A stretch of DNA of 38,700 bases, taken from contig CAVKPZ010000001.1 of assembly GCA_963658395.1 (NCBI GenBank), positions 1 to 38,700 of the forward strand, in the 5' to 3' direction. The stretch is from Lachnospiraceae bacterium. GTDB lineage: Bacteria; Bacillota_I; Bacilli_A; RFN20; CAG-826. Within the stretch, counting starts at the first letter, position 1. Every line of letters starts with the position of its first letter. The notes under the pieces were generated by a model that did no database searches, was not told where the DNA came from, and saw only the letters and a list, made by a program, of their open reading frames with translations. Shown here in pieces: positions 1-29,604 of the stretch. A program made the position numbers and the translations under genes.

Positions 1-250
1 GCAAAAATCAAAGCTTATCCCGGGATGTTGCATCGACTTTGTCACCTAACAGAAAAAACGAAGGACAAACAACGCTAAAGGTTTTCTTACGGCGCATTAA
101 AGTGTGGGGAAAACCCAATGCTAAAATTTGGAATTCAATTTAGCGGTGCGCACGTTAAGCGATCTTTTTCATAAAGCCTATACAGTGTACAAATTCAACC
201 CCACTTCGCTTTATTTTCGTGCTATAACAAAACCCCAAAGGAGGAAAGTT

Positions 251-1081
251 ATGTCGAACATCAAGGTCTTTGAAAACAAAGAAATAAGAACGAAGTGGAA
301 TGAAGAAGAGGAGGATTGGTATTTCTCCGTGGTGGATGTCATTGAAGTGTTGACGGATAGCTCCAACCCACAAACATATTGGAGGGTATTGAAAAAGAGA
401 TTAAAAGACGAAGGAAATGAAACCGTTACAAATTGTAACGCTTTGAAAATGACCGCCAAAGATGGTAAATCTAGGCTCACGGACGCCGTAAACACCAAGG
501 ATTTGCTCCGCCTTATTCAATCCATTCCAAGCAAAAAGGCCGAGCCATTCAAGTTGTGGCTGGCCCAGGTTGGCAGCGAAAGACTGAATGAAATCGCTGA
601 TCCCGAAAAGGCGATTATCCGCGGCGCGGACTTTTACCGCGCCAAAGGCTATACGGAAGCTTGGATAAACCAAAGATTGCAAACGATCGAGATGCGGAAA
701 GAACTTACGGATGAATGGAAAAACCGCGGCATCGAAAAAGAGAAGGATTACGCAATCCTTACCAACGAGATGACGAAAGCCTGGTCAGGGATGTCTGTGA
801 AAGAATATAAGGACCTTAAAGGCCTTAAAAAGGAAAACCTCCGGGACAACATGACCAATATTGAGCTCGTTCTTAATATGCTCGCGGAGGTCACGACCAC
901 GGCGATTTCAAAGCAAGAAAACCCTGAGACTTTTGAAGAAAGCAAAACAATCGCTCGCCGAGGTGGCAACGTCGCAAGCGACGCGAAGAAGAGATTCGAA
1001 AAAGAGACTGGCCTCAAAGCGGTGTCCTCCCAGAATGCGAGCAATAAAATCCTCTTAGAGGTGAAGTCAAAGAAAAAATAA
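251..1081 (+). CDS. BRO-N / DinD-like (phage antirepressor-type) protein
   Basis: The ORF track opens at 128, but the ATG at 251 is preceded by AAAGGAGGAAAGTT. The product starts MSNIKVFENKEIRTKWNEEEEDWYFSVVDVIEVL and contains LLRLIQSIPSKKAEPFKLWLAQVG and WINQRLQTIEMRKELTDEW. This is the pattern I recognise from BRO-N/DNA-damage-inducible-protein-D family proteins. Confidence 0.75.
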   Translation: MSNIKVFENKEIRTKWNEEEEDWYFSVVDVIEVLTDSSNPQTYWRVLKKRLKDEGNETVTNCNALKMTAKDGKSRLTDAVNTKDLLRLIQSIPSKKAEPFKLWLAQVGSERLNEIADPEKAIIRGADFYRAKGYTEAWINQRLQTIEMRKELTDEWKNRGIEKEKDYAILTNEMTKAWSGMSVKEYKDLKGLKKENLRDNMTNIELVLNMLAEVTTTAISKQENPETFEESKTIARRGGNVASDAKKRFEKETGLKAVSSQNASNKILLEVKSKKK

Positions 1082-4622: not shown

Positions 4623-6824
4623 ATGAAAAGAAAAACCATTCCGATTGCCCTTGCTTCCGCGTTGATGCTTGCTCTCCCTTTGTCCCTTCTTTCTTCTTGC
4701 GGTGGGGAGAAGCATCAATACGCGAGCACCTGGTCTAGCGATTCCACGGACCATTGGCACGCCTGCACTATCGCAGATCACGCCGACGTCGCCGATAAAG
4801 GCGCTCACGATTTTGACAATGGGAAAATCACCAAAGAAGCCACGGAGGATGCGGAAGGCGTCAAAACCTACACCTGCAGCACCTGCAATTACCAAAAGTA
4901 CGAATCGATCGCCAAATTGCCCCATACGCATACCTTCGATACCGCTGTCTGGGCAAGCGACGAGGAGAATCATTGGCATCCCTCCACCTGCGGGCACGCC
5001 GACGAGAAGGACGCCCTGGCCGCCCACGTTTGGGACGAGGGCGAAGTAACGAGCGAGGCCACCGAGGAAGAGGAAGGCGTGATTACCTATACTTGCTCCG
5101 TCTGCGGCGAGACGAAGGAGGAGACTATTTCCGTGATTCCTCATACGCACACTTTCTCCGATGCCTGGAGCAAGGACGAGACCGGGCACTGGCACGCGGC
5201 GACCTGCGAGCACACCGACCAAAAGAGCGGTTTCGCGGAGCATAGCGGCACGTGGACGACGAAAGAGGAAGCAACCTATTTGGCAAATAGAGTCGACCAA
5301 AGGGATTGCGAGGTCTGCGGGTATCATGAAGAGAAAGAGATCCCGGACACCATTCTTCCCGCCCAAGACAGGGAACTCAGCGTCGCGGAAATCGCGGATG
5401 TCTCTTTTGACGGGTTGGAACATCCTATTTCGGATAGCCAAATCACCCGTACCAACGATGAGGGTGGATTGACCATTGAGTATCGGGAAGAGGGTGAGGA
5501 GGAATATTCCACGGAGGTCCCCGTTGAAGTGGGCGACTACGAATATAGGGTGACTCTTAAAGGAACGAGCCAATGGAAAGAGAAAGTCGTCACAGGCGGG
5601 TTCTCAATCAACCCTTTGACGGTCGTGCTGACCGATACGTCCTTTGAGGATCCCATGATCAGCAGCGGCTACATCGTCCTTTCCAACATCTATACGACCG
5701 AAGATGGCAAGAATATTTCCGACGCTACAAACGGCTGGACCGATTCCGTCAGCCTCCTCGCTCCTTCGATTTATGGGGAGGTTGGGAGAAACACCGTCCC
5801 TTCCTCAAAGCTCTATCTTGATGATGACAACTTCATTCTTGACCGCGGCTCCATCGAAAACGTTGAAGTCATCCGCTACGACACAAGGGATTTCATCGCC
5901 GGTGTAACGGATTCATTTTACGTCACGGGGAGAGGCCCCGCTGTTACCGTTGAGATCGAAAAAGGGACCGTTGCCTCCGGGGACAAGCTTTACGTTTGCG
6001 AGCTTGGAAAAGAAGTGACTGTCTCAAGCATTTCGATTTCCAATGTGAACAAAACGAAGGCAACCGTTGGTGATGCCAATGTCGCTCTTTTGCTCAGCGG
6101 CGTCACTAAAGGAGAAATCACCAACGGCATGCTATTAGCTAAGACCGGCACGGTGAAGGCTCATCGCAGCGCTATTGCGACAATATCGCTCTATAGCTCT
6201 GCCACCTACGCTCTCCTCGACAAGGACACCAGGCCGGCATTTAGTTTCTCCGCGACCTCCATCTCGCTCAGCGGAAGGATCGCTCTTCCTTCGGGCGTTG
6301 AGCAGATCGGTATCGGAGAAACCGTCGAAAACGTCGTCGTCGATTTCTCTTCCGTCATAGGAAACTGGGCAGGAAGGACCTTCTACCTCAAAAACGGGAC
6401 CAACGTCATAGGCGCAGGGACGATCACGGAAGTCCACGATCACGATTTCGGCGACTCCGGGGTGTGCTCCTGCGGAGTCAGCAACGTGACCTCAGGCACA
6501 TGGTCCGAATCGGTTCTCACCTGCTTTGACTATTTCTATCTTGGCGAAGAGAGAGGGTATACCTGCAACTTGTCCCGTCCGATAAAAGCAAGTCCTATGA
6601 AATACACCTTCTCACTTTCTGATTCTCATGGGGATTCTTTCGACGAAGGGTTTGAATTTAAGGTTTACTCCGCCGCGACGAATGAGGAAATCACCCTAGA
6701 CTCAGACAATTCCTTCACGAAAACCACCGTTGGCCAACTACCCATAAAGGTGGTCGTGACCAAAACCGGAGGCTCGCAATGGTTTGAGTATTGCTGCCTT
6801 ACGATCACAAGATCCGTCGCCTAA
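4623..6824 (+). CDS. Surface lipoprotein with three His/Cys-rich repeats, an MBG-like segment and an EF-Tu domain II/III-like beta-barrel module
   Basis: 733 aa. Lipobox MKRKTIPIALASALMLALPLSLLSSC. SD AGGAG lies 8 nt upstream. There are three repeats of about 60-70 aa of the form HTHTF-x3-W-x2-DE-x2-HWH-x2-TC-x-H-x-D ... EGV-x-TYTCS-x-C. Residues about 421-604 align by eye to EF-Tu domains II and III (see findings). Confidence 0.85.
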   Translation: MKRKTIPIALASALMLALPLSLLSSCGGEKHQYASTWSSDSTDHWHACTIADHADVADKGAHDFDNGKITKEATEDAEGVKTYTCSTCNYQKYESIAKLPHTHTFDTAVWASDEENHWHPSTCGHADEKDALAAHVWDEGEVTSEATEEEEGVITYTCSVCGETKEETISVIPHTHTFSDAWSKDETGHWHAATCEHTDQKSGFAEHSGTWTTKEEATYLANRVDQRDCEVCGYHEEKEIPDTILPAQDRELSVAEIADVSFDGLEHPISDSQITRTNDEGGLTIEYREEGEEEYSTEVPVEVGDYEYRVTLKGTSQWKEKVVTGGFSINPLTVVLTDTSFEDPMISSGYIVLSNIYTTEDGKNISDATNGWTDSVSLLAPSIYGEVGRNTVPSSKLYLDDDNFILDRGSIENVEVIRYDTRDFIAGVTDSFYVTGRGPAVTVEIEKGTVASGDKLYVCELGKEVTVSSISISNVNKTKATVGDANVALLLSGVTKGEITNGMLLAKTGTVKAHRSAIATISLYSSATYALLDKDTRPAFSFSATSISLSGRIALPSGVEQIGIGETVENVVVDFSSVIGNWAGRTFYLKNGTNVIGAGTITEVHDHDFGDSGVCSCGVSNVTSGTWSESVLTCFDYFYLGEERGYTCNLSRPIKASPMKYTFSLSDSHGDSFDEGFEFKVYSAATNEEITLDSDNSFTKTTVGQLPIKVVVTKTGGSQWFEYCCLTITRSVA

Positions 6825-6847
6825 ATATACTCATCCAATGGAACTTG

Positions 6848-6879
6848 GGGGCCGCTTTGTCTAGAGCGGCCCCTTTTCT
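6848..6879 (+). terminator. Rho-independent terminator of the lipoprotein gene
   Basis: ggggccgc (6848-6855) pairs with gcggcccc (6866-6873) and is followed by ttttct. It lies 24 nt after the stop codon. Confidence 0.8.
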
Positions 6880-7114: not shown

Positions 7115-7879
7115 TCAATCCTTATCTTCGTTCCTCTCGGATTCCTGCTTCTGCAGAGACTCCAGCTTCGCCCTGAGTTCTTCGATCTCCTTGTCTTTCG
7201 CATTGCTCGCCGACAAGGCGGCTTCTTCTTTCTTCTTTTTCTTCTCCTCGCTTAAGACATAGATGATCTTGGCGATTTCGTAGATGCAGATCGCGCTGCA
7301 AGGAAGGATGACCAAAACAAGGGTCCCCACCTTGCTAGAGATGAAGAAATACATTTTCCCCAAAGGCAAGGAGACGAAAGACACCTTTCCGATGACTTCG
7401 CCCGTCCGCCCATCGCTATAGAGGGTCTGGGTGTTCCCCTCCTCCACCGCATCGCCCTTCAGCTTGATCATGTAAGTCGTCCCATCGCTTAGCAAGGTGG
7501 GGTCCTCGATGATCCTATGGGTGATGGTCGCGTTGTTCAAAGAGGCGTAATTGAAGGTCAGGACATCGCCTTTTTTAAGCCCGGAATAAAATTCCTCTTC
7601 ATGGCCGTCTTTGATAAGGTCGACCTTGATAAGGGATTTTACGGGAATGGTCTTGATGGGGTATTCCTCTTGACTCTCCCCATCCATTGAGCCGGATAGG
7701 ACGACCAAAAACTGGCTGTCCCCTATTCTTCCTCCGGTGGCTTTGGAGGTGATGGAAAAAGCCGCGGTTACAGTCAAAAGACCCAACACGGTATAGAAGA
7801 TGGTGTTCCTAATGATCTTGCCGACCTTCTTGGGTTTCTTTTGCTTTTCTGTGTCGTCGTTGCTATTCATTGTAGACAA
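7115..7879 (-). CDS. sipW: Signal peptidase I, SipW (archaeal/ER-type S26B) with a C-terminal TM and charged tail
   Basis: VVLSGSMDGES (catalytic Ser) and TITHRIIED (His) match the B. subtilis SipW motifs. It is the last gene of an operon of SipW-type-signal proteins. The track start is TTG at 7879. An in-frame ATG at 7870 is equally likely, and neither has a clear SD. Confidence 0.8.
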   Translation of the reverse strand: MSTMNSNDDTEKQKKPKKVGKIIRNTIFYTVLGLLTVTAAFSITSKATGGRIGDSQFLVVLSGSMDGESQEEYPIKTIPVKSLIKVDLIKDGHEEEFYSGLKKGDVLTFNYASLNNATITHRIIEDPTLLSDGTTYMIKLKGDAVEEGNTQTLYSDGRTGEVIGKVSFVSLPLGKMYFFISSKVGTLVLVILPCSAICIYEIAKIIYVLSEEKKKKKEEAALSASNAKDKEIEELRAKLESLQKQESERNEDKD

Positions 7880-7884
7880 GGATA

Positions 7885-7910
7885 GCGCGGGAGCTTGGCG
7901 GCTCCCGCGC
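7885..7910 (-). promoter_or_regulatory. GC-rich stem-loop between the 477-aa TasA-like gene and sipW (possible attenuator or RNA-processing site)
   Basis: gcgcgggagc (7885-7894) pairs with gctcccgcgc (7901-7910): a 10-bp perfect stem with a 6-nt loop. No clear U-tract follows on the minus strand, so it is not a canonical full terminator. Confidence 0.45.
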
Positions 7911-7965
7911 TGAATTAACCGGATACGAACAGGAATTCACGTTCGTAGCCAAGAGAAATGACGCT

Positions 7966-9399
7966 TTACTTTATGGTGATTGTGTTGTTTACGCCTTGGT
8001 CGTTGATGTAATTTGACACTTTTTTGATGTAGTCGCCCATTGTCTCATCGTCTTCTTTCTTAATTTCGGTGTCATTGTGCTTAAATGTGCATCCATCAAA
8101 CTCGACCTCGATGTTCGTACCAATCTTAGTTCCGCGGGATTTCTTTTGAATGGTTAAGAAACCTTCGGTGGCACTCCCGTTTTCCTTAGCAGAAATAGTG
8201 CAATCTTTGAAAGTCAATTTGGAATTGTCGGTGTCATCGGTTAGGGCAATGGCGAAGAAGTTGTTTCCATTGCCACTCCAATAGTTTTCACCAATCAACT
8301 CGCAATTTTCGAACAGGCCAGTTGTATTGGGGGACCAGATGTTAACTCCACCGTAACCCTTTAACGTTGAATTGCGCACTATCAAGTTCAGGTTTTCGTT
8401 GTTGCTGGCGATATTGAGGGGGTAATGGGTTGTGCTTACGTTGCAGTTGTCCAACGTCAAAGTGAAGTTGGTTGTTCCCCAAACGTTGATAGTTCTCACA
8501 CTTTCGCTGCTATCGGCCGGAAGCGTGCTTGTAGCGGAACTAAGGTCAATTCCTACCAGGGTTAAGGAGCCGTTTTCGTGGGTGAATTTTCCATAAACAT
8601 CCGCATCATCGGAATCAGTAGGATCGGGTTCGTTGATGTTGAATACTCTCTTTTCGGTGGTGGTAATCTTTGTATCACCGTCTCCGTAGATGGTTAGATT
8701 CCTCGCGCTGACTCTTATGGGTTCGGAGAGTTCGATATCGCTGGTTGCCTTTACGCTGACGCTTTCGCTGCTTGAGGATAAAGCTTCAAGCAAATCCTCT
8801 TCGGAAGCGACTTCGGTGTCATAAACAACCGCGTTCCCTTGAACCGCTTCAACGCCGAGTTTGATGGTGGCTTGCTCGATCTCTTCGGTCGCGGTCGCGG
8901 GCAATTCGACGACAATCTCATAAGCCTCGATTTCGCCTTCGGCATCAAGCGCCGTCCAGTTCTTGACCATGGCGTCATCGCCGGTGACTTTCAAAGCGCC
9001 GGTGTTGTCCCCGGTGAAAGAATAGGTCTCGCGGTACTTGATCTTGACGTTGCTGTTGTTTTTCGGGGTGACGGTCAAAGTGACTTTGTCCCCAGGAAGC
9101 ATCTTGGTGATGCTGACGCTGTTGCCGTCTTCTGAGACTTCAGCCTTGATGTCGGCGTAATCGGCATTGTTGGTGGAATCGAAGATGGTGGCGTCGCCTG
9201 GGTTGATAAGGCTCGGGGAATAGACTTCCTTGACCTCGATCTTAGAAGTGACGCTGACTTTACCTGAGGCCACTTCGATTTGGCCGTTTGTTTTGCTCGT
9301 GAACAAAGCGTAGGTGGTTCCGACGGCGACCCCTCCAAAGGCAAGGGCCGCGGCTGCGGATAGGATGAGGGTTTTGCTAACTTGCTTTGAGGTTTTCAT
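7966..9399 (-). CDS. TasA/camelysin-like (SipW-dependent signal) protein fused to a C-terminal right-handed beta-helix domain
   Basis: 477 aa. The N-terminus LILSAAAALAFGGVAVGTTYALFTS matches the SipW-cognate signal (G-T-Y-A-x-F). It has a LPGDKVTLTVTPKNNSNVKIKYR beta-sandwich motif. The C-terminal ~270 aa show Asn/Thr/Gly-rich repeats (NLTIYGDGDTKI, LTLDNCNVS, LIVRNSTLKGYGGVNIW, LTFKDCTISA, VEFDGCTFKH) typical of pectate-lyase-fold beta-helices. Confidence 0.7.
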   Translation of the reverse strand: MKTSKQVSKTLILSAAAALAFGGVAVGTTYALFTSKTNGQIEVASGKVSVTSKIEVKEVYSPSLINPGDATIFDSTNNADYADIKAEVSEDGNSVSITKMLPGDKVTLTVTPKNNSNVKIKYRETYSFTGDNTGALKVTGDDAMVKNWTALDAEGEIEAYEIVVELPATATEEIEQATIKLGVEAVQGNAVVYDTEVASEEDLLEALSSSSESVSVKATSDIELSEPIRVSARNLTIYGDGDTKITTTEKRVFNINEPDPTDSDDADVYGKFTHENGSLTLVGIDLSSATSTLPADSSESVRTINVWGTTNFTLTLDNCNVSTTHYPLNIASNNENLNLIVRNSTLKGYGGVNIWSPNTTGLFENCELIGENYWSGNGNNFFAIALTDDTDNSKLTFKDCTISAKENGSATEGFLTIQKKSRGTKIGTNIEVEFDGCTFKHNDTEIKKEDDETMGDYIKKVSNYINDQGVNNTITIK

Positions 9400-9426
9400 A
9401 TTCTTTTTCTTTCCTTTCTTAGTTTG

Positions 9427-9987
9427 TTAGTCTTCGATGGCATTCGCCTGAATCGCCTCGACGTTGATCAGGACTTCGTAGCTTTTGTTCTGATATGCGT
9501 TTCCGGCGGTTTTGGGGAGAAGGATCTCGATTTGCTGCTCGGGTATCTCCCCTCCCACATCGACTCTTGCCCAGGAGGAGGCGCCTTCTAATTGAAGGGG
9601 GCAATCCTCTTCTCCGGGGATGGAGATGGCGACGCGGTATTTGATGGCGATGTTGCTTTTGTTATCAAGGGAGAGGGAGAACTTGACGCTGTCCCCTGGG
9701 CATATTCGGTCTAGGGATAACCCTTTGACCGTCTTGCCTTCGATCACGAAGTCTTTGAAGGAGGCTTCCCCTCCGTTTTCAAAGATGCTCCCTTCTTGCT
9801 TGGCCCCCATGGAATAGACTTCCAAGGTGGTTTCTTTGAAGCTTACGTCAAGATCGACTTTGGCCATCTTGACGCTGCTTGGCGCCTCTTTGGTGGCGGA
9901 GAAGTAGGCATAGGTGCCTGCGATGACTCCTGAAGAGGCGATCGCGGCGGCCAGCACAGAGGCGATTAGGATTTTCTTCTTTTTCAT
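9427..9987 (-). CDS. TasA/camelysin-like secreted protein (candidate fibre subunit)
   Basis: 186 aa. Signal MKKKKILIASVLAAAIASSGVIAGTYAYFSA. It has an ICPGDSVKFSLSLDNKSNIAIKYR motif and ends in INVEAIQANA, as in TasA-family proteins. SD AAGGAG lies 6 nt upstream. Confidence 0.75.
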   Translation of the reverse strand: MKKKKILIASVLAAAIASSGVIAGTYAYFSATKEAPSSVKMAKVDLDVSFKETTLEVYSMGAKQEGSIFENGGEASFKDFVIEGKTVKGLSLDRICPGDSVKFSLSLDNKSNIAIKYRVAISIPGEEDCPLQLEGASSWARVDVGGEIPEQQIEILLPKTAGNAYQNKSYEVLINVEAIQANAIED

Positions 9988-10005
9988 ATTGGGCTCCTTC
10001 GCTGA

Positions 10006-10632
10006 TTAGGACCTGGCCTCATTGAGCTGAGTCAAGGTCAGCTTGATGGCAAAGGATAGCTCTTGGTCTTGGGCTTCGTTGGAAATCTGCTCGGCGTCGA
10101 AGCTGAGCTTAAGGGCGAACTCGTCGCTCGCTCCTTTCTCCAGGTCGCTTAGATCGACCGGGGAGAGGTCCTTCAAGGTGAATGAACCTTTTTCGTCGGT
10201 TCCTTCGGTTACGGATACGCTGACGTACTCGAGCCATGAGACACTGTCGCTAGTTACGTTATCGGCCGTAACCTGGACGTTAAGCAATTCCAGCGTCGTC
10301 TTGAAGGCGGTGCCGCCGGTGTTCTCCAATTTGAACGTGGATTTGACCTCGCTCCCAGGAACGATGTTTTCTAGCTCGAACGCTTCCGACCCGTCTTGGG
10401 TGAGGTCGAGAAGAGAATCATCGACCTTGTCTTCAAGATAGCCCTGCGCGTTAGGCACCTTGGATCTCAGCTCGGTGCGGCTGAAGGAGAAATTGAGGTT
10501 GCCGATTTTGACGTGGCTGACCACATCAAGGTTCCGGTTGAACAAAGCGAACGTTCCCCCAATCGCTCCGCCTAGAGCCAAAGCGGCGACTCCGGATGCG
10601 ATCAGCAAGCCTTTGATGCGCTTACTTTCCAT
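10006..10632 (-). CDS. TasA/camelysin-like secreted protein (paralog)
   Basis: 208 aa. Signal LLIASGVAALALGGAIGGTFALFNR. It has an IVPGSEVKSTFKLENTGGTAFK motif. SD AGGAGG lies 7 nt upstream. Confidence 0.7.
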   Translation of the reverse strand: MESKRIKGLLIASGVAALALGGAIGGTFALFNRNLDVVSHVKIGNLNFSFSRTELRSKVPNAQGYLEDKVDDSLLDLTQDGSEAFELENIVPGSEVKSTFKLENTGGTAFKTTLELLNVQVTADNVTSDSVSWLEYVSVSVTEGTDEKGSFTLKDLSPVDLSDLEKGASDEFALKLSFDAEQISNEAQDQELSFAIKLTLTQLNEARS

Positions 10633-10636
10633 TGTT

Positions 10637-10912
10637 TTACCTCCTTTCTTCGTTGCTGCCCTCGTTTATTCGGCTTCCTTCTTGCTCGCTTGGATAAAGC
10701 AAGGAAGCGCAGAAGAGGGATTCGGGCGAATGTCCCTCTTCTTTATAGGCGAATGAGTAAGACCTCACTCGGTATAAACTTTTTGGTTCTTCTACACTTG
10801 GCTTAGCGGTAGTTTCTTTCTTGTTCTTGAGGAGACTATCGACGCCGACGTAGCCAAGGAACGCGGCGATGGATAGTCCCAATATGGATAAGCAGATGAT
10901 GATTACGATCAT
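10637..10912 (-). CDS. Small single-pass membrane protein, unknown function
   Basis: 91 aa. N-terminal TM MIVIIICLSILGLSIAAFLGYVGV. It is tightly packed between operon genes, with 6-nt and 4-nt gaps. I recognise no homology. Confidence 0.5.
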   Translation of the reverse strand: MIVIIICLSILGLSIAAFLGYVGVDSLLKNKKETTAKPSVEEPKSLYRVRSYSFAYKEEGHSPESLFCASLLYPSEQEGSRINEGSNEERR

Positions 10913-10918
10913 GTTCTT

Positions 10919-11422
10919 CTATCTCCAATTGACCGACATATGCATCGCGAAGGAAAAGGAAAGGTCCTCGTGGGTTGAGGGGACGTCCTTGCTTAGGGTG
11001 TAATGGAATTCGAGGAGCGTGTTCTTCTGATCCACCACATTGAATTCCAAAGGCGTTTCTTGCTTCGCCTTCTCTATCGCGGTTATGGGGAGCAGAGTTT
11101 GTCCCTCCCAGGTTATGGTGAGGGAGAGGTATTCGTATCCCTCACCGGTATAGGAATCGTAATAAAGGGTGACCTTGCTGTTTTTGGCGGTGGTCATGTC
11201 TAATCTCACTTCCAAAACCCTAGTGTCCCCGGGAAAGAGTGGGTTCTCCTCACTCGCGAGGTAGACTTTCCCGTCTTTGACGAATACGCTTGGGTCAGGC
11301 TGAGAGGAATCGATGCTTTGGTATTGCTCGTTTACGGCGTAGCAAATAGGGACGGCGACTGAGCTCGCCAAAACGACCCCGGAGAGGGAGAAAAGGGCTA
11401 TGACGATCCCTTTTTTGATCAT
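10919..11422 (-). CDS. Secreted protein, distant TasA-like beta-sandwich paralog
   Basis: 167 aa. N-terminal signal/TM MIKKGIVIALFSLSGVVLASSVAVPICYA. It has a LFPGDTRVLEVRLDMTTAKNSKVTLYY motif analogous to the PGD motif of its three neighbours. It overlaps the upstream gene by 4 nt (ATGA). Confidence 0.55.
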   Translation of the reverse strand: MIKKGIVIALFSLSGVVLASSVAVPICYAVNEQYQSIDSSQPDPSVFVKDGKVYLASEENPLFPGDTRVLEVRLDMTTAKNSKVTLYYDSYTGEGYEYLSLTITWEGQTLLPITAIEKAKQETPLEFNVVDQKNTLLEFHYTLSKDVPSTHEDLSFSFAMHMSVNWR

Positions 11423-12336
11423 CTGTCCCCTTCTTTCTCAGCGGTCATGTCGCTGATGATCCCGATAGCGCGCCTGACGGCTAAAGAGCTGCGGACGCGC
11501 AGAAGGGTTGGGGTGTCTTGATAGGCCTTCTTATCGGAGGCCTCTAAGGGAATGGATGTGCTCGCGTAGTCTTTCGCGGACACAGCGAAATAGCACTTAA
11601 GCGTTTTGCCGGAGATGGCGATTTTAAGGTAGGTTTTGCGGCCAAGGTGATAAGTATCGCAGGTTTTCGAGACCCGGCCTTTGAGCTTGCAACTGATCGC
11701 GGCTTGCTTGATGGCCTTGTAATTGGCTTTGAGCTCAGGGGAGCTCTTCCTCAGCTTCTCGGTGAAAGTGCGGCGCTTGATGTCAGGGAAAGGATTATCC
11801 GAGGCTTGTTTCGCTTCGTCTCCCCCCCCTATTTTCAGTGTGGGGGCGGTCGCGACTTCGACGGGTTTTTCCACTACTTTCTCGACGATCTTCTCAATGA
11901 CGACCGGCTTTGGCTCCTCAGGCACATAGGGAAGAGGAACGTTCGCGTGGAGATCCACGATCAACGCTTTCTCTTCTTTCCTGGCGTAAAGGACGTAGTC
12001 TGCGCAGAGCAAAGAAAGGCGATAGGCCAATTCGGGGTCCTCCTTAGAAGAGAAGAACGGATTGCTTAGGGCGTCGTCATGCTCTTGCTGATGCTTGGCG
12101 ATATAGGAGTCGATATCTTTCTTTCTTAAAGATAGATAGGTTAAGGAAAGCTGTTCGAAGGTTTCTTCGGCTTTCTTTGACACCTCTTCTTGGGTAAGGG
12201 CCTCCCCTTCAAAGTATTCTTTGCAGAAAGGCTTCAGCCCCTCCTCAAAGAAAGGAAGCGCATCGCAGGAAAAAGGGGATGAGCTTTCCTTACTTTTGAT
12301 CAGGCGGCACTGCATCTGACTCTCGCGTTCTTGCAT
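11419..12336 (-). CDS. Hypothetical cytoplasmic protein, first gene of the SipW/TasA-like operon
   Basis: 305 aa with no signal peptide. It has an acidic/proline linker (EEPKPVVIEKIVEKVVEKPVEV) and a basic C-terminal domain (KRRTFTEKLRKSSPELKANYKAIKQ...GKTLKCYFAV). SD GAGG lies 7 nt upstream. Function unknown. Confidence 0.55.
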   Translation of the reverse strand: MQERESQMQCRLIKSKESSSPFSCDALPFFEEGLKPFCKEYFEGEALTQEEVSKKAEETFEQLSLTYLSLRKKDIDSYIAKHQQEHDDALSNPFFSSKEDPELAYRLSLLCADYVLYARKEEKALIVDLHANVPLPYVPEEPKPVVIEKIVEKVVEKPVEVATAPTLKIGGGDEAKQASDNPFPDIKRRTFTEKLRKSSPELKANYKAIKQAAISCKLKGRVSKTCDTYHLGRKTYLKIAISGKTLKCYFAVSAKDYASTSIPLEASDKKAYQDTPTLLRVRSSLAVRRAIGIISDMTAEKEGDR

Positions 12337-12926: not shown

Positions 12927-13016
12927 AACTTATAGAAGTAAAACTAGAAGCGAACTAGAAGTAAAACTAGAAGTGAACTAGAAGTTATTGTGAGGAAGCT
13001 GTAAAATATTCTAGAA
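12927..13016. repeat. Array of AACTAGAAG dyad units at 11/12/11-bp spacing, plus a TTCTAGAA palindrome, directly upstream of the AlbA_2 gene
   Basis: Perfect AACTAGAAG copies lie at 12942, 12953, 12965 and 12976. A degenerate copy, aacttatagaag, lies at 12927. Each unit extends to AACT-aga-AGTT, which is a dyad. The TTCTAGAA palindrome is at 13009-13016, just before the SD. Confidence 0.85.
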
Positions 13017-13030
13017 AGGTGGTGAACAAT

Positions 13031-14482
13031 ATGCTTTTATCCGAATTGGGAATCAAAGAAGAATTCGAAACCGTGACTAATGATTTCAAGAGATTTCTCA
13101 ATGACGGCGAGAGATCTTTGGAGTGGCTGAAAACCATTGATGCTTTTGCCAACACCAAAGGAGGAACTCTTTATGTCGGGGTTTCCGATGAGGACTATCG
13201 GCCAATTGGCTTAGATAAAAAAACGGTGGATTCGCAGGTGCAGCTTTTCTTCCGCCTTGTCAAAGAACACCTCCGGCCCGAACCCGTGGTTCAGGTTCGT
13301 TATCTAAAGGTTAGAGACGAAGCGTTCGTAATCGAGTTTTCAATTGCCTCCTCTTTATTGAAACCCGTCGTCTGCTCTTATGGTGGGAACGGTTCCATAT
13401 TTATTCGTTTAGAAGGGAAAACGCGTTTAGCCACCACCGAGGAAATCCAACGCATGGCTCTAGATACGGCCTACGTTGAATACGACAAGGTGTATTCGGA
13501 CGTGGAGTTTGATCCCGCGTGTTTCCAAACGCTTTATTCCCTATACAAGGAGAACAGCGGCAAAGAGCTTACTGAAAAGGCTCTATTCTCCATCGGTTTC
13601 TTTAATGAGCAGCGCGTCTGCCGAAGGGCCGCATTGCTTTTCTCCGATAATTTCCAGGGGGATGAAACAGCGCTCTCTATCACTGATTTCATGGGTCTAG
13701 GCAAAGGAGGAAACCGCTTTGTCAGCGAGCCTTATTTCCGCGGAAATATTCTTGAAGGGATCAAGCGCGTTCAACGCTTCGCTAGAGCCCACTCCAAGGA
13801 GATTTACGTCAAACTCGACGCAAACGGCCACACGACTTCCTCCTTCCCCGAGCGTGCCGTGACCGAGGCGATTGTCAACGCCTATGCGCATAGGAACTAT
13901 TTGCTCCCACATGGCCAAATTGAGGTAAATCTTTATCTCGACCGTTTGGAGATCGTTTCCCCGGGTTCCGTCGTTGGGCGCTCGGGATTTGAAAAAAGAA
14001 AAGATTTGGCGGCTTTGATTCCCATTCGGAGAAATCCTTTTATCTGCGAAGTCCTCTCTTTGCTTCTATTGATGGAGAGAAAAGGCTCTGGGTTCGACAA
14101 AATCGAAAAGGAATATGATTGCTTTTCTTCCGCTTTCAAGCCTTTTGCCTCTAGCGATGAGGCCTCCTTTTCCATTTCCTTGCCCAACCTTTCCTATCCT
14201 TTTGGAGTGGCTGATGGCGATAATGCGAACCTGGATTTGTTTTTCCCTGAACTCGAACGAGAGAGAGAAAGCACGAAGAGGGTTCTTTCCTATTGCTTCT
14301 TCAAAAGAAGATCTCTCAGCGAGATCGCCTCTTTCTTGGGTGTCGCCGTCTCCTCTTATCTGAGAAATAACGTGCTTCATGAGCTGATTGATAGGGGCCT
14401 CCTCCTTCTTGAGAGGGAGGGGAATAAGGATTATTACCTCACCGATAAGCGGCTGGTCAGTATCCGCGGGGAAGAACAATAG
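13031..14482 (+). CDS. AlbA_2 (Schlafen-like) plus HATPase_c_4-type putative DNA-binding/transcriptional regulator ('RecG-like' annotation family)
   Basis: The track start is GTG at 13019. The ATG at 13031 is preceded by AAAGGTGG at 8 nt. The N-terminus ...FETVTNDFKRFLNDGERSLEWLKTIDAFANTKGGTLYVGVSD... fits AlbA_2. AVTEAIVNAYAHRNY...LEIVSPGS fits the HATPase_c_4-like part. The C-terminus looks like a wHTH (LSEIASFLGVAVSSYLRNNVLHELIDRGLL). Confidence 0.7.
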   Translation: MLLSELGIKEEFETVTNDFKRFLNDGERSLEWLKTIDAFANTKGGTLYVGVSDEDYRPIGLDKKTVDSQVQLFFRLVKEHLRPEPVVQVRYLKVRDEAFVIEFSIASSLLKPVVCSYGGNGSIFIRLEGKTRLATTEEIQRMALDTAYVEYDKVYSDVEFDPACFQTLYSLYKENSGKELTEKALFSIGFFNEQRVCRRAALLFSDNFQGDETALSITDFMGLGKGGNRFVSEPYFRGNILEGIKRVQRFARAHSKEIYVKLDANGHTTSSFPERAVTEAIVNAYAHRNYLLPHGQIEVNLYLDRLEIVSPGSVVGRSGFEKRKDLAALIPIRRNPFICEVLSLLLLMERKGSGFDKIEKEYDCFSSAFKPFASSDEASFSISLPNLSYPFGVADGDNANLDLFFPELERERESTKRVLSYCFFKRRSLSEIASFLGVAVSSYLRNNVLHELIDRGLLLLEREGNKDYYLTDKRLVSIRGEEQ

Positions 14483-14631: not shown

Positions 14632-15675
14632 ATGAGCAACAAAATCAGCATCGATATCCTATCTCACGCCGACATGGCGGAAGCACAAGGCGTATTAAGC
14701 GTCTACCGCGAACAGACCCGCATCTTGGAGAAATACGGCAAAGACGACTTCAATCTAACCTATAACAAACTGACGGGCAAATTCGACCTTTACCATGTCC
14801 ATTCCGTGAACCCCTCCTTCTATTTCTTCACCCTGAAGAAAAGGAAGACCTCCATTGTTTTCGTCCATTTCTTGCCCGATACCTTGGATGGATCGGTCAA
14901 ACTGCCGAAGATCGCCTTCAAGGTCTTCAAGTGGTACGTGACCTCCTTCTACAAGAAAGCCAAGGAGATCGTCGTGGTGAACCCCACTTTCAAAAAGGAA
15001 CTCGCCAGGTTCGGCATAAAAGAAGAAAAGATCACCTACATCCCCAATTTCGTGAGCCACGGCTCTTTCTTCCCGAAGACGGCGGAAGAGAAAGCGGCCC
15101 TAAAGAAGGAATGGGGATTTCCCCTTGATAAAAAGGTCGTGATCGCCGTTGGGCAGGTCCAGACAAGAAAAGGCGTCATGGATTTCATCCGGACTTCCGA
15201 AAAGTGCCCCGACATGTATTTTGTTTGGGCGGGAGGCTTCTCTTTCAAAGGCATCACCGATGGCTATAAAGAGCTGAAGGCTGAGATGGAGAAACAGAGG
15301 CCGAACCTAAGATTCCTAGGCATCCAACCCCGCGAGAAGATGAACGACATCTATAACGCTTCCGACATCTTCATGCTCCCCTCCTTCAATGAGCTTTTCC
15401 CGATGGCCTTGCTTGAGGCCTGCAACTCCGGCCTCCCCTACATCGTCCGCGATTTGGATCTTTATAAAGACATCCTTCTTGGCGATTATTTCACCGCGAA
15501 AGACGTGGATGGATTTGCTTCTAAACTGCATGAACTAACAAATAGCGAAGAGACTTTTGAACATGGGAAAGTCCTCTCCAAGATGATCGCTGACACCTAT
15601 AGCGAAGAAGCCAATTACGCTCTTTGGAAAGACTATTACACCAAGATCTGCGAGAAATACAAAAAGAAGAAATAA
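14632..15675 (+). CDS. Group-1 (GT4-family) glycosyltransferase
   Basis: 347 aa. The C-terminal half carries the GT4-type motif region: GRLVxxKG-like VGQVQTRKGVMDF, then FMLPSFNELFPMALLEACNSGLPYIVRD (E-x7-E-like). The donor and acceptor cannot be inferred. Confidence 0.7.
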   Translation: MSNKISIDILSHADMAEAQGVLSVYREQTRILEKYGKDDFNLTYNKLTGKFDLYHVHSVNPSFYFFTLKKRKTSIVFVHFLPDTLDGSVKLPKIAFKVFKWYVTSFYKKAKEIVVVNPTFKKELARFGIKEEKITYIPNFVSHGSFFPKTAEEKAALKKEWGFPLDKKVVIAVGQVQTRKGVMDFIRTSEKCPDMYFVWAGGFSFKGITDGYKELKAEMEKQRPNLRFLGIQPREKMNDIYNASDIFMLPSFNELFPMALLEACNSGLPYIVRDLDLYKDILLGDYFTAKDVDGFASKLHELTNSEETFEHGKVLSKMIADTYSEEANYALWKDYYTKICEKYKKKK

Positions 15676-15753
15676 GCCTCTTCTTAGCCGTTAAACGAAA
15701 TTCTCAAGAGCCCTTAATTTGCGGCGCTTTTAAATGCGACGCGTCAAGAAACG

Positions 15754-24566: not shown

Positions 24567-25751
24567 TTAATCCAAAATCTCTTGTTCCAGCTTCACGTCA
24601 TTATCGAGCATGAATTGGATTGTTTCTTTGAATTCGATGAAGGCTTCCTCATTTAACATCTTGTTTAGTCTCTCCTTGTCGTTCGGGGTTAGCTTCTTTA
24701 GATTCCCAAAGTTGCTTTTTAGCTCTTCAATGCCCATTTTATATGGCTTTATGGGGATGCCTGTTTTCGCTCTTAGATTTACTAGAATCCAAAATCCTCC
24801 CGCATCGATGTCCCCAAAATGGAGATATTCTGCCTTTGGAAAAGCCTCATATAGTTTCACGAGAAGCTTTTGCTTCGTGTGGTTGTGGAAACCTGCTAAA
24901 TAGATGACCAACGCGTCCTTTTCTTTGAGCTCATAGAAGGAAGTGAGATTCTCAACCGTGATTACTTTCGTCAAATCGCCTGGCTCAAACTCGATTTTCT
25001 TGATCATCTCATCTGACAAAGAGAACTCAAAGCCAAGCTCATCCAAATCAATCAACGACTTGTTGATTCTGAACCTCAGCTTGTTCTTGAGGAGGACGTA
25101 TGAGGAGTTTTTGCCTAGGTTAAAGGACTCAAGAACCTCTTCATCCGTTAAATCTTCTAAGGAGGCGTACTTCCTAAGGATCTTGATGACTTTCCCTTCA
25201 ATCAATTCGAAAGTCTTGGAGTCCCCTAGATAATGGGTTGAGAAATCCCTTATCTTCGTCTCTTTATCCAAAAGGAAAAGGCTCTGCAGGGTTTTTAGAA
25301 TCAAATCCAACTGTTTTGCATCGTTAAAGAAAGATTTTGGATAGGTGTATTTCTCTTCGATGCTTTGCCGGATATCGGAGATAAAGTCAGCGACGAAGTT
25401 ATTGAAGCGATATTTGGATAAGACTTCCAAAACCTTGGCGTTCTCTTCCGCGGGGCTCGGGCGATGCAAATATTTATAGACCTCGTTCACGGAGTCGATA
25501 TTCAAGGTCAAAGATTTAAAGACATCGCCCTCGAATTCCGCTTGGATGAAACCAAACTTCTCTAATCTTTCAATAGAGGCGTTGTTCTTATCCGTGTATT
25601 TGTAGGAATCGTAACCGTTGTAAGAAGAAAGGACATCGTCCTTCGTGGTCAAGGTTATCTTCCTATTCACCTGGGTCCCGCCCCTAGAAAGTTTCGAGTT
25701 CTCGTATTTATCGAGCAGCTTGTTGAGAAGCTTTGTCTCGAAGTCACTCAT
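24567..25751 (-). CDS. jetD: Wadjet JetD (MksG-like; DUF3322 plus Toprim-like DUF2220 nuclease subunit)
   Basis: 394 aa. The C-terminal Toprim-like region has VITVENLTSF (Glu) and LHFGDIDAGGFWIL (DxD). It is the last gene of the four-gene operon and overlaps jetC by 8 nt. Confidence 0.8.
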   Translation of the reverse strand: MSDFETKLLNKLLDKYENSKLSRGGTQVNRKITLTTKDDVLSSYNGYDSYKYTDKNNASIERLEKFGFIQAEFEGDVFKSLTLNIDSVNEVYKYLHRPSPAEENAKVLEVLSKYRFNNFVADFISDIRQSIEEKYTYPKSFFNDAKQLDLILKTLQSLFLLDKETKIRDFSTHYLGDSKTFELIEGKVIKILRKYASLEDLTDEEVLESFNLGKNSSYVLLKNKLRFRINKSLIDLDELGFEFSLSDEMIKKIEFEPGDLTKVITVENLTSFYELKEKDALVIYLAGFHNHTKQKLLVKLYEAFPKAEYLHFGDIDAGGFWILVNLRAKTGIPIKPYKMGIEELKSNFGNLKKLTPNDKERLNKMLNEEAFIEFKETIQFMLDNDVKLEQEILD

Positions 25752-28700: not shown

Positions 28701-28977
28701 CGATATAGCTCACGATGTCGTTTTCTGGACGGAGAAAAGTGTTGTTCTCGCTTCCGATTTTGCCTCTAACGTAGGTCTCGATCGTCCTTTGCCCGCCTTC
28801 GCTCGCGGCTTTGTTGAAGTTCCTTTTGTCCCCACCAGACAAGACGAAATAGATCGCGTCCATCAAGGTCGATTTGCCACAGGCGTTCTCCCCTGTGATC
28901 AAGGTGTTGCCCTCGATGGCGATCGTGCTATTGGTGAAGATGTGCCAGTTGATGAGCTTAATCTTCTTCAGTTTCAT
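25744..28977 (-). CDS. jetC: Wadjet JetC (SMC/MukB-like ABC ATPase)
   Basis: 1077 aa. The N-terminal head is MKLKKIKLINWHIFTN...ITGENACGKSTLMDAIYFVL (Walker A). A coiled-coil of about 700 aa follows. The C-terminal head has SGGETQTPFYIVIAS (signature) and VVFDEAFNNMDEGR (Walker B). Confidence 0.85.
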   Translation of the reverse strand: MKLKKIKLINWHIFTNSTIAIEGNTLITGENACGKSTLMDAIYFVLSGGDKRNFNKAASEGGQRTIETYVRGKIGSENNTFLRPENDIVSYIALECGDKKSGKSLVLGVVIELFSSEPKPNFFLINDHEIEEGDYLKNKKALTFKEFKAHAQAMRYDFQPLNGSKREIRRAIGRDLFKLEDYNRYFDLLSSAISFKPISEVSTFVNSFLLSQNNISLDSMREEIRSYQEIHRLVLKEQEKMDALALFIPKAEKYVENLSSIQYLGVLKIEAEAESYKADLDAKRMELAKLDDESKTLSEQIAQLDKDINSAHVEINLLENDEAYKVLQQKKTKLDAYHKELLELSAKLQTFENQIAGELKIIKALGIKSSLAENFKSKDFASLSINLKKYQGDLSSLQESLNSEKAKNSLRIEEDKSSLKDKESELCLLQKGLNNYPEDVNNLLKIVKEAVSKSFPKDREPLIAPFCEFLEINDRKWANALEGKLASKRFDLIINPKYYEVARNALDQAKNKQRVYLSGLVNVKSLPEGGKTKDGDTLFSKLDVKNDYARKYASYLLSNTRCVESSSELEHYESAITPEAFSYDGHVLKACDPELYKKPYIGRESIKVRIALLQEEIQALKAEIASIEGEQTEINGKLSYARMSKIDALLETENYWAKVELKQKSIQELKDEIKDDEKQKGLLEISSKIEKAKKRLSEFGLLKRQKEDKRDQLSESKGRVIGSIENLEKAIEDSESRFQSEKKRVDEDQYQQLLPKYLNHLKHLNVEKINADYENAFRSNVVSKPDLEAKMSAYASNYKPSLVAIIDNIKDYINEYYELKNRDIVQYEREANDAYKRAENSFRQDFISKLNEKIQEAKKKLANINKSLAKHPFGNDEEVYEFSYGPTKDNEFCEYYRIINSGKLLEADDLFTEVLDEKDVSFIKDLFDKISMEVDSSEAEKELERYLDYRNYMNYDIKITNKRGDVTYFSKISREKSGGETQTPFYIVIASCFDELMNKDRNKVESTCQVVFDEAFNNMDEGRIKSLMEFYKNLNIQIIIVVPSNRFSVISPYVETIIGIVKYNNIPIIQRMVKEDE

Positions 28978-29602
28978 CTTCGTCTCCTCCTTTCGAGGCG
29001 TTGTAGGTCGCCAGTTTGCTCTTCAGCATGTCGACGTTATCAATCTTCACGACGTAAAGAATCGTCGGGTAGATGGTGACGATGGAGTCTTCGCTCATCT
29101 CCGAGAAGGCGAAGTTGATGATTTTGTAACGGCGCAAAACCCTAAGGGAATTGTAGATTTCCTTGTTGCTTGGTTGGATGCGATAGATGGCGGTTTTGTT
29201 GATCTCCAAGACCAAATCCCCCACTTTTGCGACGATATCGGAACCCGAATACACCTTCTCGTTGGCTTTGTGATAGAGGAGCCTCAGGATGAGGAGGAGT
29301 ATGGTTTCTAGCTTCTTTAGCTTGACCCTGTTCTTATCCGCGGTCGTTTGGATATAGAAGACCTTGTATTGATCCACATGGATGAGGTCGTAATCAATCA
29401 AGGAGAAGTAACTCGAAATCGCATCCTTCATGGTCAAGGTTTCATAGTAATCGTTTTTGTCCTCAGGCTTTGAGCCGTAGATAAAGGTCTCGTTCAGAAG
29501 TTTGTTGCAGATTCTGGAAAAGTTGTTTTTGCGGGTATCCGTCAAGCCGTTGTAGGCTTCGCTGAAGTGCTCGCAGACTAGGTTTCTTGCTACGTTGGCC
29601 AT
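28958..29602 (-). CDS. jetB: Wadjet JetB (MukE-like, DUF4194)
   Basis: 214 aa with an acidic C-terminal tail (GGDEDETEED). Its position between jetA and jetC, its size and its pattern (KLLNETFIY...YFSLIDYDLIHVDQYKVFYIQT) fit DUF4194. It overlaps jetC by 20 nt. Confidence 0.7.
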   Translation of the reverse strand: MANVARNLVCEHFSEAYNGLTDTRKNNFSRICNKLLNETFIYGSKPEDKNDYYETLTMKDAISSYFSLIDYDLIHVDQYKVFYIQTTADKNRVKLKKLETILLLILRLLYHKANEKVYSGSDIVAKVGDLVLEINKTAIYRIQPSNKEIYNSLRVLRRYKIINFAFSEMSEDSIVTIYPTILYVVKIDNVDMLKSKLATYNASKGGDEDETEED

Positions 29603-29604
29603 GT

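Follow-up and report, generated by a model that had tools for sequence, protein, structure and literature searches.

TasA-type fibers form the protein scaffold of Bacillus biofilms and now make up a superfamily that spans domains of life. A compact operon in a Lachnospiraceae bacterium raises the question of whether such a fiber can be assembled from several different subunits, ordered from a tip to a membrane anchor. The operon lies in a 38,700-nucleotide stretch of contig CAVKPZ010000001.1 (assembly GCA_963658395.1), referred to below as the window, and consists of seven tightly packed minus-strand genes, here called g1 to g7, of which the last is a sipW-type signal peptidase gene. We conclude, with moderate confidence, that the operon encodes a SipW-dependent surface fiber or stalk of the TasA superfamily in which several different subunits would be joined by donor-strand exchange.

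TasA-family pilins and their putative donor strands

A sequence-only reading of the window had described a seven-gene SipW operon whose products carry SipW-type signals and PGD or PGS motifs, and all of these were found in the minus-strand translations: GGTFALF in g4, AGTYAYF in g5, and GTTYALF in g6, together with the sandwich motifs PGS/PGD/PGD, plus FPGD in g2. Both g4 (28.0 bits) and g5 (28.9 bits) exceeded the gathering score (22.5) of PF12389, the Peptidase_M73/TasA family. Neither g6 nor g2 itself matched this family in the Pfam scan; g6 is tied to it through its paralogy to g5 and through paralogous fusion proteins that do match. With TIGR04088 (cutoff, 19), g5 scored above the cutoff (29.6), g6 (13.4) and g4 (11.6) scored below it, and g2 gave no match. 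The two subthreshold proteins nonetheless carry the G-T-(Y/F)-A-L-F motif. In addition, g4 gave a subthreshold match to TIGR04089 (E value, 2.8e-5), and g5 matched TIGR04090, the BsaA family, weakly across its N terminus.

The paralogs also align with one another. The N-terminal part of g6 (approximately residues 20 to 191) matched g5 at ~31% identity over ~175 aa (BLASTP E value, 4e-16 to 5e-18), and g4 is a more distant paralog of g5 (E value, 2e-8) that matched the combined profile of g5 and the g6 N terminus (g5/g6-N) with an hhalign probability of 96%. Searched against PDB, the g5/g6-N profile had the TasA structures 5OF1 and 8AUR as its best matches (E value, ~1e-3), in two collinear blocks (PGD...N..IK and NxYQ...FEAxQxN); the top matches of the g4 profile, AbpX and TasA, were nonsignificant. 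On these sequence comparisons, g4, g5, and g6's N-terminal domain are TasA-family proteins with predicted SipW-type signals. Of the four TasA paralogs that had been proposed, these three can therefore be recognized by sequence.

Two other interpretations of this family were considered and rejected. No HExxH motif is present in any of the seven products, and g5 has no histidine at all, so that the family's peptidase name does not apply and the metalloprotease reading of the Peptidase_M73 label was discarded; CalY is regarded as a misidentified peptidase (PMC11580942). A sortase-assembled pilus was rejected because no C-terminal LPXTG sorting signal is present, the sole matches being internal LPxTA motifs within the sandwich. 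No sortase was found among the open reading frames (ORFs) of at least 150 aa that were scanned with Pfam, a scan that covered part of the ORFs of the window, and no SLH domain was found in the cluster.

In TasA, the donor strand (residues 28 to 38) directly follows the SipW site and inserts into the next subunit, and TapA supplies the first strand of the fiber (PMC9674648). The predicted cleavage sites in the operon products are GGTFA↓LF in g4, AGTYA↓YF in g5, and GTTYA↓LF in g6 (signal, residues 1 to 31), giving mature TasA-type subunits of 159 to 179 aa. The resulting N termini are LFNRNLDVVSHV in g4, YFSATKEAPSSV in g5, and LFTSKTNGQIEV in g6, compared with AFNDIKSKDATF in TasA (F29 and F39; PMC9674648). 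In all three, the cut after (T/S)(Y/F)A exposes LF- or YF-, position 2 being aromatic and position 12 hydrophobic, as they are in TasA.

Relatives of the cluster (labeled L002, L003, and so on) were found by look-ups of g6 homologs and by a genome scan with a g1 profile. The mature N termini fall into three distinct classes, each conserved across its orthologs. Class A, LFTS..V.V.SGKVS, comprises g6 (LFTSKTNGQIEVASGKVSV in the window) and the extra fusion proteins found in relatives; class B, (Y/I)FSA.K...VKMAKVDL, comprises g5 (YFSATK...VKMAKVDL in the window); and class C, LFNRN.DVVtHVKIGNLNF, comprises g4 (LFNRNLDVVSHVKIGNLNF in the window). The g4 strand is the best conserved, 20 of its first 22 mature residues being identical in the L002 ortholog. 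When g6 and the extra fusion protein of one genome are compared, they are 55 to 100% identical in the first 22 mature residues and 31 to 54% identical in the sandwich; the corresponding values for g6 and g5 are 18% and 26 to 33%. This is the pattern that strand-groove specificity would produce, and because g6 and the extra fusion share one strand class, it suggests that passenger fusions compete for a single acceptor site. The putative strands of g5 and g6 also contain an invariant Lys (K43 in AKVDL and K47 in GKVSV, respectively), at the position where g4 has Asn (N45 in GNLNF). This Lys could be relevant to isopeptide locking of the BsaA kind.

Passenger, candidate anchor, and predicted cytoplasmic partners

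The 477-aa g6 product had been credited with a C-terminal beta-helix of ~270 aa, and residues ~193 to 477 did model as one. The AlphaFold2 model (22 sequences; pLDDT, 79.9; pTM, 0.78) left residues 1 to 44 unplaced or disordered, placed residues 50 to 190 in a beta-sandwich, and arranged residues ~195 to 476 as a long stack of short strands, with a pLDDT of ~80 to 95 over most of the C-terminal domain. Foldseek matches, obtained with the whole model so that the sandwich is not separable from the beta-helix in them, included isopullulanase, PL6 alginate lyase, pectate lyase, phage tailspikes, and the L. reuteri SRRP adhesin (E values, 6e-4 to 3e-2). An ortholog that is 57% identical to g6 (P0002) scored 28.3 against PF20585 (cutoff, 24.3) and 25.6 against PF13229 (cutoff, 25.9), and the L013 ortholog also passes the Pfam threshold for a "putative pectate lyase-like adhesive domain." Among 15 g6 orthologs, identity was 56 to 82% in the TasA module and 36 to 47% in the beta-helix, which thus evolves faster. 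No Asp or Glu residue is conserved in the C-terminal domain across these 15 sequences; conservation falls mostly on structural residues (Gly, Asn, Thr, Cys, Phe, and Leu). Given this fast evolution and the lack of conserved acidic residues, the beta-helix sequence is most likely that of a binding (adhesin) domain rather than an enzyme.

At the other end of the putative fiber, a candidate is g2. Its AlphaFold2 model (eight sequences; pLDDT, 73) consists of a hydrophobic helix (residues 4 to 31) followed by a beta-sandwich (residues 36 to 165), and the best Foldseek match of the model was the TasA fiber 8AUR (E value, 4.8e-5), ahead of archaeal AbpA 7UEG (9e-4) and of FimG and CfaB (~4e-3). By the modeled fold, g2 may thus be the fourth TasA paralog. 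Neither g2 nor any other product resembles TapA at the level of NCBIfam, Pfam, or PDB sequence matches. The earlier statement that the cluster has no TapA-like gene therefore holds for sequence, but by analogy a functional counterpart of TapA or TafF is probably present in g2, with its helix and TasA-like sandwich. No SipW-type motif is present in g2, and its N terminus (VNEQYQ) is unlike the pilin strands and lacks their donor-strand pattern. The residue equivalent to SipW position −1 is Ala in about half of the orthologs and Phe in the others, a pattern that speaks against obligatory cleavage at this site. A g2 gene was found in every related cluster, and its product is a TafF-like candidate for a membrane anchor that accepts the last strand.

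The g7 product contains the catalytic boxes SGSM (residues 62 to 65, with Ser64) and THR (residues 120 to 122, with His121) and the GD boxes, as well as transmembrane helices at residues 26 to 45 and 176 to 209 and a charged, 45-residue coiled-coil tail. It is a divergent relative of the SipW-type (endoplasmic reticulum/archaeal-type) signal peptidase I, not an equivalog. Public gene calls give the 251-aa form with an ATG start. Its identity in relatives is 62 to 77%, and the tail motif D/KxEIEELk is common to the L017 SipW, which is 33% identical. In B. subtilis, the C-terminal part of SipW additionally plays a regulatory role in surface biofilms.

Translation signals differ markedly along the operon. 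Shine-Dalgarno pairing ranked g4 above g5 and g2, followed by g3, g1, g6, and sipW; the g4 site was by far the strongest (−12.3 kcal/mol), and sipW had none. The intergenic region upstream of sipW, which contains a GC-rich hairpin, folds at −36 kcal/mol (z, −4.8). At the same position, hairpins with other sequences precede sipW in L002, L005, L013, and L014, making five lineages with that of the window (z, −3.7 to −5.5); none was found in the distant L019. The hairpin is a candidate attenuator or mRNA-end structure that would lower sipW expression relative to that of the subunits, and together with the strong g4 Shine-Dalgarno sequence and the absence of one for sipW, it fits abundant subunits and a scarce peptidase. 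As to which subunit is the major one, g4 occurs in all related and distant clusters, and g5 is absent from L013, L007, L017, and L018. Of the two proteins previously put forward, of 186 and 208 aa, this phyletic pattern and the strength of the ribosome-binding site favor the 208-aa g4 as the best candidate for the core, or major, pilin, leaving g5 as a candidate adapter or second stalk subunit.

The 305-aa and 91-aa products had been taken for a cytoplasmic protein and a single-pass membrane protein, and this was borne out: g1 has no hydrophobic or transmembrane segment and no signal, and by hydropathy and ortholog alignment, g3 has a single N-terminal transmembrane helix, followed by NKKE, and a conserved tail motif, LYRVRxYxFxYK. 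By the positive-inside rule, the g3 tail and the SipW coiled-coil tail are predicted to face the cytoplasm. No match to g1 was found in Pfam, NCBIfam, PHROG, or PDB sequences. It comprises an N-terminal domain (residues ~1 to 140) that is lineage specific, an acidic/Pro-rich linker, and a C-terminal domain of ~115 aa (residues ~185 to 300; window positions 11419 to 11985) that is widespread and unannotated. A g1 profile search of 1.84 billion representatives yielded 2,674 proteins, almost all matching the C-terminal domain only. This domain is often repeated in tandem, in 2 to 7 copies with Pro/Glu/Lys-rich linkers between them, and the proteins found reach 4,721 aa, none of them being annotated; the only Pfam co-occurrence among these distant relatives was an occasional DUF1508/YegP, and the genomic context of a protein with the stand-alone domain (P0248) was uninformative. 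Full-length homologs of g1 (n = 10) are always encoded first in the cluster, and g3 always lies between g2 and g4. In L017 and L018, a 231-aa protein joins a g3-like N-terminal membrane helix, through a linker, to the g1 C-terminal domain (21 bits, with nearly all of the domain covered; E value, 1.5e-7 among 19 candidate sequences). This fusion implies that g3 and g1 are functionally linked and that the domain sits at the inner face of the membrane, and we infer an accessory or regulatory module made up of g1, g3, and the SipW tail.

The gene order g1-g2-g3-g4-g5-g6-(extra fusion)-sipW recurs in L002/L004/L011, L005/L006/L010, L009, and L014 and, in variant form, in L012/L013 and L015/L016; with g5 optional, the set is syntenic in ~7 lineages. 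Most relatives have one extra TasA-fusion gene (464 to 739 aa) before sipW that is absent from the window. In L012/L013, a second fusion pilin takes the place of g5. In L015/L016, where g1 is 36% identical, the g1-g5 block is kept and a g6-like gene lies upstream. In L007, genes resembling g2 and g4 are retained along with two fusions. The distant type represented by L017/L018 has the order TetR, 161-aa helix-plus-sandwich protein, SipW, the 231-aa membrane protein, a g4-like pilin (E value, 3e-15), and two fusion pilins; the 161-aa protein matches the g2 profile over its full length (11.8 bits). The recurrent core is made up of g2, g4, a passenger-bearing pilin, and SipW, with g5 optional. 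In approximately 100 further proteins, the g6-type N-terminal module is joined to a different C-terminal domain, such as Beta_helix, Glug, Flg_new, or LRR_5.

Some features of individual relatives were seen in passing. In L014 (positions 8078 to 8990), the g1 ortholog is split into ORFs of 56 and 255 aa, a sign of a frameshift or an assembly error; the remainder of this cluster is undamaged. The neighbors pcrA-ligA-gatCA in L015, along with the SipW/TasA biology and the use of Shine-Dalgarno sequences, point to the Bacillota. In L017 (2001 to 2840) and L018 (1981 to 2820), the cluster lies directly downstream of a phage-type integrase gene and the TetR gene, and SSB and AAA genes are also nearby in L018; this type of cluster may ride on an integrative mobile element.

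A candidate heteromeric fiber and its rivals

A heteromeric donor-strand fiber is the most economical reading of the operon. The three mature N termini are distinct and orthologously conserved, and the beta-helix evolves faster than the TasA module. In such a fiber, the subunits would be exported by the Sec pathway via their long hydrophobic signals, and SipW would cut after (T/S)(Y/F)A, so that the new N terminus (L/Y-F...) could serve as a donor strand completing the sandwich of a neighboring subunit. The three strand classes would impose an order running from the passenger pilins through g5 and g4 (possibly repeated) to g2. First in the chain would be the passenger-bearing pilins, namely, g6 and, in relatives, the second fusion of 464 to 739 aa; g5 would be an optional adapter or stalk subunit and g4 the universal, best-translated core. 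The g2 helix would probably remain uncleaved, keeping g2 in the membrane as a TafF-like terminal acceptor and anchor. The hairpin and the absent ribosome-binding site would hold sipW expression low, and g1, g3, and the SipW tail would face the cytoplasm as an accessory or regulatory module.

In a bolder version of this model, the product would be not a matrix fiber but a display stalk independent of sortase, in which an uncleaved g2 and g4, as universal adaptor, would tether interchangeable passenger pilins (with beta-helix or other domains) to the membrane by strand exchange under the control of a cytoplasm-facing module of g1, the g3 tail, and the SipW coiled-coil tail. We regard it as speculative and, on present evidence, improbable. 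If true, it would give the g1 C-terminal domain (>2,600 protein clusters) its first functional context and would point to inside-out control of TasA-type assembly.

Several observations weigh against the heteromeric fiber. The link between g2 and TasA comes from a single medium-confidence model built from eight sequences, and generic jelly-rolls score close behind TasA in the fold search. No link was seen at the sequence level, where hhalign gave g2 probabilities of 8.6% against g5/g6-N and 0.3% against the g4 family and the g2 profile gave only spurious transmembrane matches among PDB sequences. Cleavage of g2 could also occur, S-V-A↓V-P and C-Y-A↓V being plausible sites in the window protein; it would then act as an initiator in the manner of TapA and not as an anchor. 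For the passenger, g6 itself has no Pfam match, and its Foldseek matches are weak (TM, 0.2 to 0.38). Moreover, g6 has its own donor strand and a full sandwich and groove, so that its sequence does not confine it to the end of a fiber. The g7 product falls below both curated cutoffs (NF046067, 65.3 versus 190; TIGR02228, 47.9 versus 51.85). A search for expression data from the stretch found none. Finally, we infer strand exchange, subunit order, and stoichiometry alike.

The paralogs might instead form separate homopolymeric matrix fibers that do not coassemble, with g6 self-polymerizing or monomeric and sharing only the SipW route, on the model of TasA and CalY in Bacillus cereus or of BsaA and BsaB in C. 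perfringens. Every subunit of the operon has its own strand and groove, which makes homopolymers structurally possible, and BsaB was not found in the BsaA polymers of C. perfringens (PMC11580942). Separate fibers would leave unexplained, however, why the strand classes are kept per paralog, why the two large fusions share a class despite their divergent sandwiches, and why even very distant clusters have g2, g4, and a fusion pilin together, and we consider them unlikely. Much less likely still is that no fiber is made and that the products are SipW-processed secreted or envelope proteins, similar to camelysin or spore coat proteins, whose genes cluster through their shared peptidase. The Pfam name Peptidase_M73, the first description of TasA as a spore-associated protein (PMC9674648), and the fact that a filament role is proposed here from genes alone would agree with this view. 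The peptidase label, however, is regarded as a misassignment (PMC11580942), in keeping with the missing HExxH motif and histidine-free g5; the structurally solved superfamily members considered (TasA, AbpA, AbpX, and the Tafi pilin TafE) all polymerize by strand donation; and the postcleavage residues of the subunits align with the TasA donor strand, including Phe at position 2 and the hydrophobic residue at position 12.

A further rival concerns g6 within any of these assemblies. Its beta-helix could be an enzyme, a polysaccharide lyase or depolymerase, that the TasA module displays or releases for matrix remodeling or for the degradation of host or dietary glycans, and not an adhesin. The best structural matches do include isopullulanase, the alginate and pectate lyases, and phage tailspike depolymerases, and related fusions carry Pel9A-like or Beta_helix domains. 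The SRRP adhesin is nonetheless also among the top matches, g6 orthologs fall into the Pfam pectate lyase-like adhesive family, and the residues that 15 orthologs conserve in this domain are mostly structural, with no Asp or Glu among them; an enzyme is therefore doubtful. We accordingly retain, for g6, the adhesin and, for the operon as a whole, the heteromeric strand-exchange fiber as the preferred readings.

Genomic setting, precedents, and significance

Positions of the operon genes and associated elements (window coordinates unless a relative is named)
Feature	Position	Strand	Remark
Operon g1-g7	12336..7115	minus	Seven tightly packed codirectional ORFs
g1, 305 aa	12336..11419	minus	ORF translation
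g2, 167 aa	11422..10919	minus	Start overlaps g1 stop (ATGA)
g3, 91 aa	10912..10637	minus	ORF translation
g4, 208 aa	10632..10006	minus	TasA-family subunit
g5, 186 aa	9987..9427	minus	TasA-family subunit
g6, 477 aa	9399..7966	minus	TasA module plus beta-helix
g6 residues 1-192	9399..8824	minus	Signal, putative donor-strand segment, TasA-like sandwich
g6 residues 193-477 plus stop codon	8823..7966	minus	Predicted right-handed beta-helix passenger domain, pectate lyase-like adhesive type
g7 (sipW)	7879 (TTG, 254 aa) or 7870 (ATG, 251 aa)..7115	minus	Signal peptidase
GC-rich hairpin	7884..7911	minus	11-bp stem; directly upstream of sipW
Pre-sipW hairpin, L002	~11696-11722		Relative
Pre-sipW hairpin, L005	~10861-10896		Relative
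Pre-sipW hairpin, L013	~15664-15697		Relative
Pre-sipW hairpin, L014	~14650-14676		Relative
Candidate promoter, TTGACA-17 nt-TACAAA	12381..12409	minus	Weak; ~45 nt 5' of g1; low confidence
GC hairpin between sipW and 733-aa lipoprotein gene	6847..6873	none	Convergent genes; best local fold, −20.8 kcal/mol

The region upstream of g1 is a 680-bp intergenic region that contains the candidate promoter. A consensus scan for promoters and terminators gave none above shuffle expectation and missed this candidate, which has A at position 6 of the −10 hexamer and was read directly from the sequence. At the other end of the operon, the T-run of the intergenic hairpin is on the plus strand only, so that this hairpin is likely to act mainly as the terminator of the neighboring lipoprotein gene and also as the end of the operon transcript. 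No Rfam family matched in the window.

The gene convergent with sipW (window positions 4623 to 6824, plus strand) encodes a predicted 733-aa lipoprotein (signal ...LLSSC) with repeated Cys/His-rich units, such as TCSTCNYQ...PHTHTF and TCSVCGETK...PHTHTF, and no Pfam or PHROG match. It was considered as a counterpart of the extra 735-aa TasA fusion of relatives and rejected, being on the opposite strand and having no TasA domain. On the other side, the cluster is adjoined by a gene with Schlafen AlbA_2 and HATPase_c_4 domains (13019 to 14482, plus strand), which is kept in L002, L003, L005, L006, and L007, relatives with otherwise different flanks; it is possibly a regulator. A tandem repeat of 11/23 bp, TAGAAGTAAAAC (4.6 copies; 12933 to 12985), lies in the divergent intergenic region 35 to 85 bp upstream of this gene and is a possible operator array. 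Farther away, a complete Wadjet (JetA-JetB-JetC-JetD) antiplasmid defense operon occupies positions 24567 to 30987 (minus strand), with Pfam matches to JetA, DUF4194/MksE, an SbcC/AAA_29 ATPase (1,077 aa), and JetD_C. Scattered around it are an ADP-ribosyltransferase-exoenzyme-like gene and mobile-element or phage-type genes (Bro-N, ORF6N, and DUF3990 plus HTH) at positions 31719 to 33005 (minus), 128 to 1081 (plus), 20582 to 21253 (minus), and 23167 to 24472 (minus), and these surroundings look like a variable genomic island.

The sequence-only reading held that an architecture of this kind had not been described, which proved to be an overstatement, as there are close precedents in Tafi pili (2025), AbpA/AbpB (2022), AbpX loci (2026 preprint), and the Bsa operon of C. 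perfringens. The cluster shares with tapA-sipW-tasA of B. subtilis (8AUR and 5OF1) a dedicated SipW-type peptidase, subunits of the TasA family with a solved or predicted jelly-roll fold, an accessory protein gene that opens the operon, and mature N termini that directly follow the cleavage site, a segment that is the donor strand in TasA. It differs in having four sandwich proteins instead of TasA and TapA, sipW in the last rather than the middle position, no TapA by sequence, a 285-aa beta-helix fusion, and the additional g1 and g3, and its subunits are shorter, without the C-terminal extension of TasA.

The closest match in layout is the haloarchaeal Tafi cluster (tafA-tafG), whose seven genes include those for a major pilin and an adapter, a tip of two domains, a jelly-roll anchored in the membrane, and a SipW-like peptidase (PMC11821415 and PMC12337348); in its model, TafC forms the tip and TafA the core, with TafE as the adapter and TafF as the anchor (PMC11821415). 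The two clusters have in common seven genes, a SipW-like peptidase, major and minor pilin paralogs, a mostly cytoplasmic accessory protein, a tip or candidate tip that combines an N-terminal pilin-like sandwich with a different C-terminal domain, and a membrane-helix jelly-roll proposed as the acceptor and anchor. All four hallmarks of a Tafi-type system (peptidase, at least two pilin paralogs, two-domain tip, and membrane-helix jelly-roll anchor) are thus present at the level of architecture. The likeness is one of architecture. The cluster is bacterial and has Sec/SipW-type rather than Tat signals, no RR motif was found in any N terminus, and no DUF5305 (TafG) match was found in Pfam. The g2 helix is N-terminal, as in TafF1/2 of Natrinema, whereas that of Haloarcula TafF is C-terminal, and the passenger is a beta-helix in place of the laminin-G-like domain of Tafi.

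Within the Bacillota, C. perfringens sipW-bsaA-bsaB-bsaC encodes two TasA paralogs and a vWA protein, and the BsaA polymers are reported to be membrane anchored, not linked by sortase (PMC11580942). It resembles the cluster as a SipW operon that combines TasA-family paralogs, two in this case, with a large putative adhesive protein. Unlike g6, however, BsaC (vWA) is a separate protein that is not fused to TasA and is exported with the help of type IV pilus genes; BsaA subunits are locked by an Asn-Glu-Lys isopeptide; and nothing corresponding to g1, g2, or g3 is present in the Bsa operon. AbpB has been proposed as an initiator or adhesin with distal adhesin domains (PMC9245690), and AbpX loci encode a predicted tip and minor subunits as well as signal peptidase accessory proteins (10.64898/2026.01.04.697558). 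These systems belong, like the cluster, to the TasA superfamily and assemble by strand donation, as is proposed for the cluster, but bacterial AbpX loci typically have SLH or LPXTG anchors and a 10-transmembrane-helix peptidase, whereas the peptidase here has two such helices. Chaperone-usher pili (FimH and PapG) offer a more remote parallel, with Ig-like or jelly-roll subunits ordered by strand-groove specificity and a two-domain adhesin; they belong to an unrelated lineage, and the cluster has no chaperone or usher. FimH carries its adhesin domain at the N terminus, and its pilin domain has no donor strand; in g6, the domains are arranged the other way round and the strand is retained.

A literature search found no description in bacteria of a TasA-beta-helix fusion combined with a putatively N-terminally anchored g2 and a g1/g3 pair. 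The operon is most likely a bacterial variant of fiber designs known in Bacillus, Clostridium, and archaea. To our knowledge, multisubunit TasA-type versions with tips and anchors have so far been analyzed mainly in archaea. The cluster and its ~100 fusion relatives in uncultured Clostridia and Bacilli suggest that gut-type Gram-positive bacteria display diverse adhesin-like domains by strand exchange, without sortase. If this is confirmed, commensal Bacillota would have a further class of surface organelle for adhesion, the cluster would offer a tractable model for the ordering of subunits by strand specificity in the absence of a chaperone or usher, and a cytoplasmic domain that is very common but unannotated, the C-terminal domain of g1, would receive its first function.

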